Part shown: positions 46,811-49,002 of the stretch, one piece after another
How the letters are laid out: each line of letters begins with the position of its first letter
Numbering within the stretch: the first letter of the stretch is position 1
DNA from: Escherichia coli
GTDB lineage: Bacteria > Pseudomonadota > Gammaproteobacteria > Enterobacterales > Enterobacteriaceae
Assembly (NCBI RefSeq): GCF_024700885.2
Contig: NZ_CP117016.1
Length of the DNA: 64,000 nt
Direction: 5' to 3' (one strand)
Translations under genes and position numbers: made by a program
The notes under the pieces: model-generated
What the model was told of the DNA's origin: nothing
The model's input: only the letters and a program-made list of their open reading frames with translations
Database searches by the model: none

Positions 46811-47530
46811 ATGGCTACCCCACACATTAATGCAGAAATGGGCGATTTCGCTGACGTAGTTTTGATGCCAGGCGACCCGCTGCGTGCGAAGTATATTGCT
46901 GAAACTTTCCTTGAAGATGCCCGTGAAGTGAACAACGTTCGCGGTATGCTGGGCTTCACCGGTACATACAAAGGCCGCAAAATTTCCGTAATGGGTCACG
47001 GTATGGGTATCCCGTCCTGCTCCATCTACACCAAAGAACTGATCACCGATTTCGGCGTGAAGAAAATTATCCGCGTGGGTTCCTGTGGCGCTGTTCTGCC
47101 ACACGTAAAACTGCGCGACGTCGTTATCGGTATGGGTGCCTGCACCGATTCCAAAGTTAACCGCATCCGTTTTAAAGACCATGACTTTGCCGCTATCGCT
47201 GACTTCGACATGGTGCGTAACGCGGTAGACGCGGCTAAAGCACTGGGCATTGATGCTCGCGTTGGTAACCTGTTCTCCGCTGACCTGTTCTACTCTCCGG
47301 ACGGCGAAATGTTCGACGTGATGGAAAAATACGGCATCCTCGGCGTGGAAATGGAAGCGGCTGGTATCTACGGCGTCGCTGCAGAATTTGGCGCGAAAGC
47401 CCTGACCATCTGTACCGTGTCTGACCACATCCGCACTCACGAGCAGACCACTGCCGCTGAGCGTCAGACCACCTTCAACGACATGATCAAAATCGCACTG
47501 GAATCCGTTCTGCTGGGCGATAAAGAGTAA
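46811..47530 (+). CDS. deoD: Purine nucleoside phosphorylase
   Basis: 239 aa, [31 protein letters not shown]. Confidence 0.95.
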
Positions 47531-47560
47531 TTGTGTTTTGCTGAAAGGCGATTGCCTTGT

Positions 47561-47594
47561 GAAGCCGGAGCGGGAGACTGCTCCGGCTTTTTAG
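47561..47594 (+). terminator. Rho-independent terminator after deoD
   Basis: GCCGGAGCgggagactGCTCCGGC followed by TTTTT. Confidence 0.7.
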
Positions 47595-47690
47595 TATCTA
47601 TTCATCAATAGCAACTGATTTATAGATTTACTATTATTTTTCATATGGATAGAAAATAAAATCCATTCAAGTATCTATTCACGAATCTAT

Positions 47691-47954
47691 TCATTTATGT
47701 TCAGCCGTCATCCAGGAAGGGCATATCAGCAACTCTGGTGGACAACCATAAATTCCTGCCATTTTGCTTTTGATGTTTGAACTAAGCCGTTCCGTCTTTT
47801 CGATCTGTTTTAGAGAATTAATGGAGATACCTAACATTTTACTTACTTCAGCAAGTGATAGTTTATGCCTGATACGCACGGCGGTTAGCCAGGATATACC
47901 CTGGCTGAACATTAAATTGATAATCTCCCGTTCCTGGTTTTCCAGATCGCTCAT
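47691..47954 (-). CDS. Hypothetical small HTH-like protein (occupies the position of yjjJ in K-12)
   Basis: 87-aa ORF with HTH-like LSLAEVSKMLGISINSLKQIE; AT-rich flanking repeats AGTATCTATTCA. Confidence 0.3.
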   Translation of the reverse strand: MSDLENQEREIINLMFSQGISWLTAVRIRHKLSLAEVSKMLGISINSLKQIEKTERLSSNIKSKMAGIYGCPPELLICPSWMTAEHK

Positions 47955-47985
47955 ATTTCCTTCCCTGGATATTTAAATCAGCGAG

Positions 47986-49002
47986 TTACCTTACCGCCCC
48001 CGCTATCCACGCAGACAACTCCCGTAGCTCTTTTTCCTGTTCCGGGAAGTCAACCAACAGCGCTTCGCACTCCTGTTGCAGCATATCCGCGCGGTACAGG
48101 CAGCCTTGCAGTCGCCCGGCGAGGGCTTCCAGCGGCGCGGGGTTGAGGCTGTCGGTAAACACCTGGGCGCGGGTGATATGGCCTTTTTCAACGTCGAAAT
48201 GCAGTTCCACACCGCCCCAGGTAAAGCGTTCATCCAGCAGATGCGAGAATGCCGGAGCCTGACCGAAGTTCCATTCCCAGCTACTCTGGCGGGCAAAGGT
48301 TTCGGCGAAGTTTGGCAAGTCTGGCGTTTTGTCCGGGGAGATGATTTCTGCTTCCACGCGCTCGCCATAATGGGCGAAAAAGGCCTCGGTTATGGCCTCG
48401 CAAACCTGCTCATGGGTGATCCCCGGCAGCAGCTCGGTGAGGTTGGTCACTCGGGAACGTACCGACGTAATGCCTTTCGCCGCCAGTTTCTTTTTATCCG
48501 GATTGAGATAGTTTGCCAGGCGGCTAAGGTCGGCATTGAGCAGCAAGGTGCCGTGGTGGAAGCCGCGATCTTTGGTTTCGCGATAGGCCGAGCCTGAGAC
48601 TTTGCGGTCGCCTTCGGCGGTTTTCACCACCAGATCGTTACGTCCGGACGCTTCGGCGCTGACGCCGAGCGCGTTCAGCGCATTAAGCACAATCGACGTG
48701 GAGATAGTTTTATCGTACTCCGGCTTGCCAGCCATAAAGGTAAAGCAGGTATTACCGAGATCGTGGAACACCGCGCCGCCACCGCTACTGCGCCGCGCCA
48801 GGCGGACGTTATCTTCTTCCATCCGCCGGGTATTACACTCTTTCCACGGGTTCTGTGCGCGACCAATCACTACCGTGTCGGCATTGCGCCAGAGAAACAG
48901 AACGCGCTGCGTGGCGGGCATCTGGCGAAAAATACACTCCTCCACCGCCAGGTTAAACCACGGATCGTAAGAGTCAGAGATGAGCAGGCGTAATGTGGAC
49001 AT
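47986..49002 (-). CDS. lplA: Lipoate-protein ligase A
   Basis: 338 aa, [25 protein letters not shown]. Confidence 0.9.

Follow-up and report, generated by a model that had tools for sequence, protein, structure and literature searches.

We consider it probable that, in the commoner allele of the Escherichia coli deoD-lplA interval, the coding sequence of the toxin gene hipH (yjjJ) was exchanged for a small gene on the opposite strand, here termed ORF87, and that the control module of hipH was kept. This module contains an array of 12-bp boxes, which would be operators at a rightward promoter, HipH itself being their likeliest binder where it is present. We analysed the interval within a 64-kb stretch of E. 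coli DNA (64,000 nucleotides; the window), where it spans positions 47531-47985 (455 bp, as read from the sequence and the list of open reading frames) and has a GC content of 34-42%, as against 50-60% in its flanks. A preliminary description, made from the letters alone, had reported such a short AT-rich interval, with an 87-aa minus-strand reading frame containing an HTH segment and with repeated motifs, at the position of yjjJ in K-12. All of this stands, apart from details of the repeats: the copy at 47670-47681 was placed correctly, the first copy lies one base lower than described (47593-47604), the third copy is real (CGAATCTATTCA, 47682-47693), and a fourth (AAAATCCATTCA, 47658-47669) had been missed. 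The interval and its flanks are composed as follows:

46811-47530, plus strand: deoD (purine-nucleoside phosphorylase), the left conserved flank, from the open-reading-frame list; 100% identical to WP_000224877.1 (RefSeq annotation, strain KE21)
47562-47592 including the T run (hairpin 47562-47589), plus strand: predicted deoD or deo-operon terminator hairpin, an inverted repeat, AAGCCGGAGC-8 nt-GCTCCGGCTT
47593-47604 (9-mer 47596-47604), plus strand: box 1, AGTATCTATTCA (AGT-ATCTATTCA), directly after the terminator
47605-47657, plus strand: 53-bp spacer carrying a putative relic of the hipH promoter
47658-47669, plus strand: tandem box a, AAAATCCATTCA (AAA-ATCCATTCA)
47670-47681, plus strand: tandem box b, AGTATCTATTCA (AGT-ATCTATTCA)
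47682-47693, plus strand: tandem box c, CGAATCTATTCA (CGA-ATCTATTCA)
47691-47954, minus strand: ORF87, a small Xre-family HTH protein, WP_001281310.1, from the open-reading-frame list, Pfam and RefSeq annotation
47955-47985, minus strand: 31-bp gap between lplA and ORF87, with a purine-rich ribosome-binding site (AGGGAAGGAAAT) ahead of the ORF87 ATG
47986-49002, minus strand: lplA (lipoate-protein ligase), the right conserved flank, from the open-reading-frame list

The hairpin behind deoD has a perfect 10-bp stem and an 8-nt loop, followed by TTTTT if the last bases of the stem are counted; a simple terminator scan gave no call, and the terminator function is read from this structure, which is identical in the K-12-like allele. 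One isolated box directly behind it and three tandem boxes with a 12-bp period make up the array (spacings of 65, 12 and 12). All three exact copies of its 9-mer, ATCTATTCA, in the 64-kb window fall inside the same 100 bp; with one mismatch allowed, there are 10 occurrences compared with 11.8 in shuffled sequences. The non-random feature is thus the clustering of the boxes and not the word as such. ORF87 reaches into the array from the right: its TGA stop is formed, on the minus strand, by the final three bases of the last box. Three nucleotides beyond this box, at 47697-47699, an ATG persists at the old position of the hipH start and opens a frame of only 27 codons; we rejected this frame as a plus-strand gene, as it is not conserved in Superficieibacter or in the uncultured Enterobacteriaceae genome UBA3516. 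The window matches strain KE21 at 100% identity.

How common is this arrangement? In MG1655 and K-12-like genomes, the same chromosomal slot between deoD and lplA is filled by hipH (b4385; 443 aa), a plus-strand gene whose stop codon abuts that of lplA. The placement of yjjJ in the preliminary description was accurate, and K-12 does not share the short interval of the window. The K-12 gene is monocistronic; its product, a Ser/Thr kinase toxin of the HipA family, carries an HTH at the N-terminus. From the window hipH is absent: YjjJ and a plasmid-borne paralogue, searched by tblastn against its entire length, gave a best E value of 0.49, and the locus encodes no HipA_C kinase with an N-terminal winged HTH, of the kind that K-12 YjjJ exemplifies with 675 bits on NCBIfam NF007297. 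What the window has in its place is an unrelated small gene on the other strand. We rejected the notion that ORF87 is an inverted or decayed piece of hipH, since there is no protein similarity and since blastn-short and tblastx comparisons with nine hipH genes were negative. In the loci examined the two genes never occur together. The short form is present in 4062 of 5426 complete E. coli genomes, where its gene is annotated as "helix-turn-helix domain-containing protein"; it is the majority allele of the species, already annotated and not peculiar to the window strain, at odds with the rarity that the preliminary description had implied. The remaining genomes, about 1360, match the flanks only, and all eight that we sampled are annotated with yjjJ/hipH. 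The hipH form was sampled in human clinical and laboratory strains, for example the ST131 strain ZH063 and J53; it is likewise present in E. albertii and, with a patchy distribution, elsewhere in Enterobacterales.

Aligning the two E. coli forms locates the exchange to the base. They are identical through the deoD terminator and box 1; the spacer of about 50 bp that follows cannot be aligned except for a TTTTCA; the tandem boxes (two or three copies among E. coli) differ between the window and K-12 by one base; and homology ends exactly at the yjjJ ATG, to resume exactly at the lplA stop codon. Window positions 47531-47696 are hence the counterpart of the DNA upstream of hipH in K-12, with terminator, box 1 and tandem boxes. 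The repeats are not a scar of the replacement, because they are identical, and in the same positions, in genomes that carry yjjJ, right in front of its ATG. The boxes belong to the conserved control region of hipH and not to the junction of the replacement.

To place the locus in a wider frame, we scored the lplA neighbourhoods of 80 Enterobacteriaceae species for deoD, hipH, ORF87 and boxes. In most genera the interval is bare, measuring 60-100 bp and devoid of boxes. Boxes are always present with hipH (six genera, 60-95% identity) and with ORF87 (three genera, 46-85% identity); decaying remnants were seen in three more, and the cargo of other loci is unrelated (fimbrial operons or REP-associated transposases, for example). 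One E. coli has IS200C and IS1A in the interval. The box module precedes hipH in E. albertii, Citrobacter, Kosakonia, Pseudocitrobacter, Leclercia and Silvania, and the same module in the same neighbourhood accompanies further homologues of 48-58% identity in Salmonella, Erwinia, Cedecea and Pantoea. It stands, in fact, in front of every hipH homologue examined, including a 434-aa paralogue, 35% identical, that 26 E. coli genomes carry on plasmids of 90-100 kb, with lysozyme and SSB genes as neighbours. A convergent 102-aa reading frame next to this paralogue was rejected as a second ORF87-like gene, having neither a Pfam match nor similarity.

From 17 loci, we defined the upstream control module of hipH as a box 0-3 nt after the T run of the terminator, a spacer of about 56 bp with a promoter, and two to three tandem boxes with a 12-bp period that end 1-3 nt short of the hipH ATG. 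The 62 boxes collected with a regular expression that permits variation at positions 3, 4 and 8 vary little even there (C in 54/62, T in 54/62 and C in 59/62, respectively). For the majority of loci, 65 bp (63-66) separate box 1 from the first tandem box; where the latter has decayed, the distance is 76-78 bp. The window has the box right after the terminator and, some 65 bp on, the tandem boxes at 12 bp, with spacings that match those of K-12, E. albertii and Salmonella; what it lacks is a hipH start codon 1-3 nt behind the boxes, as the gene downstream is ORF87 on the other strand. The spacers are 50-70% identical, about background for AT-rich DNA, and their clustering by allele type is uninformative. 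When the ORF87 alleles of three genera are compared, conservation is confined to box 1, TTTTCA and the tandem boxes. The N-terminus of HipH is a winged helix of the ArsR/MarR type, a class of HTH different from that of ORF87, and its recognition helix (SQ-A/P-T-x-SR) is conserved far better than the remaining protein. That the boxes might be a motif common in phages or hosts was rejected after a search of viral contigs, 89 of which contained the tandem pattern, against 46 and 17 for permuted controls, the 46 partly overlapping the same arrays in another register. Only four of the viral loci have a HipH-type HTH nearby, namely those that encode the hipH paralogue, and we take the remaining matches as chance 12-bp tandem repeats.

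Published data connect the array to a promoter. RNA-polymerase genomic SELEX assigned the promoter TTTTCA-18-TCTATT to the deoD-yjjJ spacer of K-12 (PMC3946193), and its -10 element falls in the first tandem box. The window counterpart is TTTTCA at 47638-47643, 18 bp, and TCCATT at 47662-47667, which suggests a relic of the hipH promoter in the spacer; a scan for consensus promoters found none in the interval of the window on either strand. Reg-Seq of K-12 yjjJ described two repressor sites, one for MarA and one for an unnamed factor at +30 to +45, as counted from an assumed, computationally predicted start site (4621716) and with the repressor site cut by the end of the mutagenised region (PMC7567609 supplement). 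On MG1655, the site of the unnamed factor is tctattcacgaatcta, which corresponds to tandem boxes 2-3; that work made no mention of a repeat structure, of the distal box or of the conservation, and the spacer that holds the MarA site in K-12 is replaced by unrelated sequence in the window. Expression of hipH is controlled by c-di-GMP via the promoter region, and the HTH is needed for toxicity, according to a 2024 study that left the operator undefined (PMC11452175). ChIP-exo of tagged YjjJ in K-12 gave zero binding sites (PMC8464067), a result that speaks against autoregulation by HipH, provided that expression was high enough.

The suggestion that the repeats are binding sites is thus probably right, given their deep conservation and the published repressor footprint on them in K-12, and we treat them as candidate sites. 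In the literature we searched, no paper describes the box array; its motif strings and guessed O157 and CFT073 locus tags led to unrelated papers only. To that extent, the array is a previously undescribed, conserved candidate operator for the HipH toxin family.

What kind of gene is ORF87? Residues 25-76 of its 87 codons match Pfam HTH_3 (PF01381) with 25.4 bits against a threshold of 23. It also exceeds the threshold of Sigma70_r4 (PF04545; 26.8 versus 24.1 bits), which we treat as cross-matching among HTH domains: a sigma factor was rejected at 87 aa, with no other sigma region and with NCBIfam sigma models far below cut-off. An AF2 model (pLDDT 88.4, from only five sequences) shows an Xre-type helical domain, whose best Foldseek matches are the small Xre repressors CylR2, P22 c2 (N-terminal domain), DdrO and C.BclI, with SinR among the top (probability about 1.0, TM up to 0.77 on the target, rmsd 1.5-2.1 Å over 53-60 columns). 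Sequence identity to the four best matches is 18-30%, and ORF87 has two additions that they lack, a further helix at the N-terminus and a conserved CPxxLLxxPxWM tail at the C-terminus. Orthologues of 46-51% identity occupy the same site in Superficieibacter and UBA3516, retaining length, frame, HTH and C-terminal motif, and in all three genera the stop codon lies inside the last box. With a dN/dS of 0.15-0.40 (dS being saturated), the gene appears to be under moderate purifying selection across these genera. Its family is small: a word-indexed search returned relatives in Escherichia and Shigella only, and an exhaustive profile search of 1.8 billion representatives yielded two full-length clusters, the remainder being fragments or generic HTH domains. 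Together, these features point to a small predicted DNA-binding regulator.

Within E. coli, ORF87 is dispensable, because a large lineage carries a stop at Q50, in the predicted recognition helix, and another strain a frameshift. The Q50-stop allele is widespread: of 40 records taken at even spacing along the ranking, the first six matched it at 100% identity over the interval, which implies some 700-830 genomes. Where intact, ORF87 is probably co-transcribed with lplA, as the 31-bp gap leaves no room for a promoter of its own; having its own ribosome-binding site, it would ride on the lplA transcript. A conserved palindromic operator at its 5′ side was rejected: E. coli has a palindrome at 47887-47906 and CCWGGATAT repeats, but nothing corresponds to either of them in the other genera. 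Tests for a type II toxin-antitoxin system found no second supported small reading frame, and PADLOC and NCBIfam gave weak generic HTH matches only.

The closest well-known system is hipBA, in which the Xre-type HTH protein HipB autoregulates the operon by binding several operators across its promoter, each a palindrome of the form TATCC-N8-GGATA. The hipH locus resembles it in encoding a HipA-family toxin, in having repeated sites that span a promoter, and in an HTH that could repress. Unlike the hipBA palindromes, the putative sites of the hipH module are direct repeats that recur every 12 bp, with one distal box 65 bp upstream of them. ORF87 and HipB are of nearly the same size (87 and 88 aa) and both of the Xre type, with no detectable sequence similarity; we rejected ORF87 as a HipB relative, as BLASTP against K-12 HipB gave no alignment at E ≤ 100 and as HipB is outside the top 50 fold matches. 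Nor is its context that of a HipB-type antitoxin: the neighbours are deoD and lplA, no HipA-family kinase lies beside it, and it is its 3′ end that faces the repeats.

How did the short allele arise? That hipH with its module is the older occupant of the slot is well supported, because the gene is syntenic across Enterobacteriaceae and Erwiniaceae, the direction resting on this wider synteny and not on a rooted phylogeny. It is likewise well supported, by the identical junction with the stop codon within the last box in three genera, that ORF87 replaced the hipH coding sequence once, in the lineage from which most E. coli descend and in a few other genera. The stretch exchanged would run from the hipH ATG to the lplA stop codon, and the unrelated newcomer points the opposite way, parallel to lplA.

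What, then, binds the boxes? Like operators, they flank and overlap the promoter; they also follow hipH over 35-100% protein identity, even onto plasmids, and a repressor footprint falls on them. A repressor bound there would hold down the rightward promoter, whose -10/start region the tandem boxes overlap. In hipH-bearing loci, the best candidate for this repressor, and the most economical one, is the winged helix of HipH itself, in an autoregulation like that of other toxin-antitoxin loci. In the window allele, the relic promoter would fire antisense into ORF87 and lplA, and the boxes would still be used by some factor, be it a host protein or, less likely, ORF87, because boxes and TTTTCA have stayed conserved across ORF87 alleles although the synonymous sites of these alleles have reached saturation. 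Their conservation in genomes without hipH at the locus is not explained by an operator for HipH only.

It is this conservation, with and without hipH, that favours a host transcription factor binding the boxes whatever gene lies downstream, for example a mediator of the c-di-GMP control, with HipH not binding at all. The negative ChIP-exo result, the failure of Reg-Seq to put a name to the repressor and the action of c-di-GMP at promoter level agree with such a factor. A protein that brings its own operator nevertheless fits better than a host regulon with the boxes that accompany the plasmid paralogue in an unrelated gene context, and neither the 64-kb window nor some 1 Mb of related loci contained a further box cluster. 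We also know of no E. coli factor with a ATCTATTCA motif. We regard a host factor as the sole binder as possible, yet somewhat doubtful.

The preliminary description had asked whether the small protein binds the repeats. ORF87 always adjoins the boxes, with one and the same junction in three genera, its fold model is confidently that of a DNA-binding domain, and the boxes stay conserved where hipH is gone, all of which would suit a self-contained unit of a regulator and its operator. The boxes, however, predate ORF87, being identical upstream of every hipH, whose HTH belongs to another class; they sit at the 3′ end of ORF87 and not at its promoter; the predicted recognition-helix positions vary (SINSLKQ versus TPDALKR and TPESLAR), whereas the boxes are invariant; and E. 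coli lineages with the Q50 stop keep four perfect boxes. Binding by ORF87 is thus conceivable but, in our view, unlikely.

A bolder version of the exchange is that the box array is an undescribed operator of the HipH family and that, in three-quarters of sequenced E. coli, the toxin was swapped for a small Xre repressor which took over the operator or the promoter. We think this quite unlikely. If true, it would represent an exchange of a toxin for a regulator at a fixed control module, and the relic promoter would yield a regulated antisense transcript over ORF87 and lplA.

Could the repeats act in RNA instead? No purine-rich ribosome-binding site precedes the hipH ATG, and, whichever promoter assignment is used, little of the mRNA leader lies outside the tandem boxes, so that they might serve translation or stability of a Shine-Dalgarno-less message and be a mere leftover in the window allele; since Reg-Seq reads RNA abundance, an effect of the leader would mimic a repressor site. 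On the other hand, the distance of about 65 bp at which box 1 sits, upstream of the promoter, is fixed, which suggests cooperation at the level of DNA, and the boxes are conserved in ORF87 alleles, where the hipH message is absent. An Rfam search of the box region matched no family, and folding gave no convincing structure besides the deoD terminator hairpin, the source of the low folding energy. A role in RNA appears decidedly improbable to us. That ORF87 is a chance open frame in AT-rich filler is more improbable still: the internal stop of a common allele, the frameshifts in others and a family of two full-length clusters would fit, but the orthologues preserve frame, length and HTH under purifying selection, and the E. 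coli gene passes the Pfam gathering threshold, is modelled confidently (pLDDT 88) and has a good ribosome-binding site. Hardly credible, finally, is the insertion scar that had been proposed, in which the boxes would be target duplications or end remnants of a mobile element from a deletion of yjjJ or an insertion, for although the varied cargo of the interval marks it as a hot spot in Enterobacteriaceae, intact hipH alleles across many genera carry the same boxes in the same number, order and spacing, and no transposase, integrase or inverted terminal repeat lies alongside the boxes in the window.

Our preferred reading remains that of putative operators kept through the exchange, with HipH the likeliest binder where present. 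About 75% of complete E. coli genomes are without hipH at the locus, among them O157:H7, at least one ST131 strain and the window strain, so mechanisms worked out in K-12 or UPEC16 cannot be species-wide. The boxes have outlived the toxin over long evolutionary time, which implies a user other than the HipH of the locus itself. The overall significance is modest. Yet hipH is under study as a toxin in persistence and genome stability with c-di-GMP control at its promoter, and the candidate operator described here bears on the regulation of this gene and offers a lead for the HipH operator.

ORF87, the 87-codon Xre-type helix-turn-helix gene on the minus strand, is inactivated in many E. coli. 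A widespread allele, typified by M217, is annotated as a pseudogene: a CAG-to-TAG change in the part encoding the recognition helix places a premature stop at codon 50 (Q50). Roughly 700–830 complete genomes match this allele at 100% identity across the interval. In strain EC488 (L085), ORF87 is instead frameshifted and one 12-bp box is also lost. When the M217-type allele L090 was used as the query over the 460-bp interval, ORF87-type alleles ranged from 92.6% to 100% identity. Only 22 of 5424 matching genomes reach at least 99% identity to the window over 47331-48185 (855 bp), and the ORF87 product of the window begins with MSD, as opposed to MID in all other sampled alleles. The sites in and around ORF87 are:

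47805-47807, equivalent position of the Q50 stop in the M217-like alleles (L090-L092 and L248)
47887-47906, near-perfect 20-bp palindrome AGCCAGGATA/TACCCTGGCT within the 5′ part of ORF87
47964-47972, recurrence of CCWGGATAT just upstream of the ORF87 ribosome-binding site

Neither the palindrome nor CCWGGATAT is conserved in the other genera. At the opposite end of the gene, because the 12-nt period of the boxes (47658-47693, minus strand) equals four codons, the ORF87 stop is followed by two further in-frame TGA codons, giving three in all, 12 nt apart.

How are these alleles distributed? The O25b:H4-ST131 strain 5392 (L250) bears an ORF87 allele with 93.9% identity to the common one, and strain ZH063 (L093), which we take to be ST131 as well, has hipH at the locus. 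If that assignment is right, hipH and ORF87 alleles are swapped by recombination within lineages. In the 'empty' 82-bp interval of Escherichia whittamii (L003 7015-7096), ATTCATCAAT is kept directly after the terminator and joins the end of box 1 to five bases that typically begin the spacer of ORF87-type alleles. This interval seems to derive from an ORF87 allele by deletion rather than to be an ancestral empty site.

The same ATCTATTCA boxes as at hipH also lie upstream of a second HipH-type kinase of 434 aa, which shares only 35% identity with K-12 HipH and has a winged helix of the ArsR/MarR type. The gene for this kinase resides on 90-100 kb plasmids, where it adjoins lysozyme and SSB genes, and was found in 26 of the 5426 E. 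coli genomes. Its sampled copies are:

L246 4139-5443, plasmid pEC12-3
L137, L140, L143 and L147, contigs classified as viral

Viral contigs often contain 9-mer-NNN-9-mer patterns by background alone: across the IMG/VR contigs L095-L174, the real motif yielded 89 such stretches, as against 17 and 46 for two permuted controls. Raw counts of short tandem matches in IMG/VR should not be taken as evidence of function.

In K-12, hipH and lplA point towards each other and their stop codons abut (L001 4190-4210). Since a 2025 RNA-seq survey lists the pair as a convergent 'excludon' (PMC12288877), overlapping transcription may matter for lplA.

Across Enterobacteriaceae, the contents of the deoD-lplA interval extend from a bare 60-100 bp up to chaperone-usher fimbrial operons of ~5.5 kb, and include:

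L011, L058 and L060, fimbrial operons
L032 and L082, REP-associated transposase
L027 and L065, lipoprotein-like ORFs
L084 3263-4854, IS200C and IS1A between the deoD terminator and hipH in E. coli XJ5.2

The match of XJ5.2 to the window stops at 47592, immediately 5′ of box 1. The deoD-lplA interval is a hot spot for unrelated cargo throughout the family.
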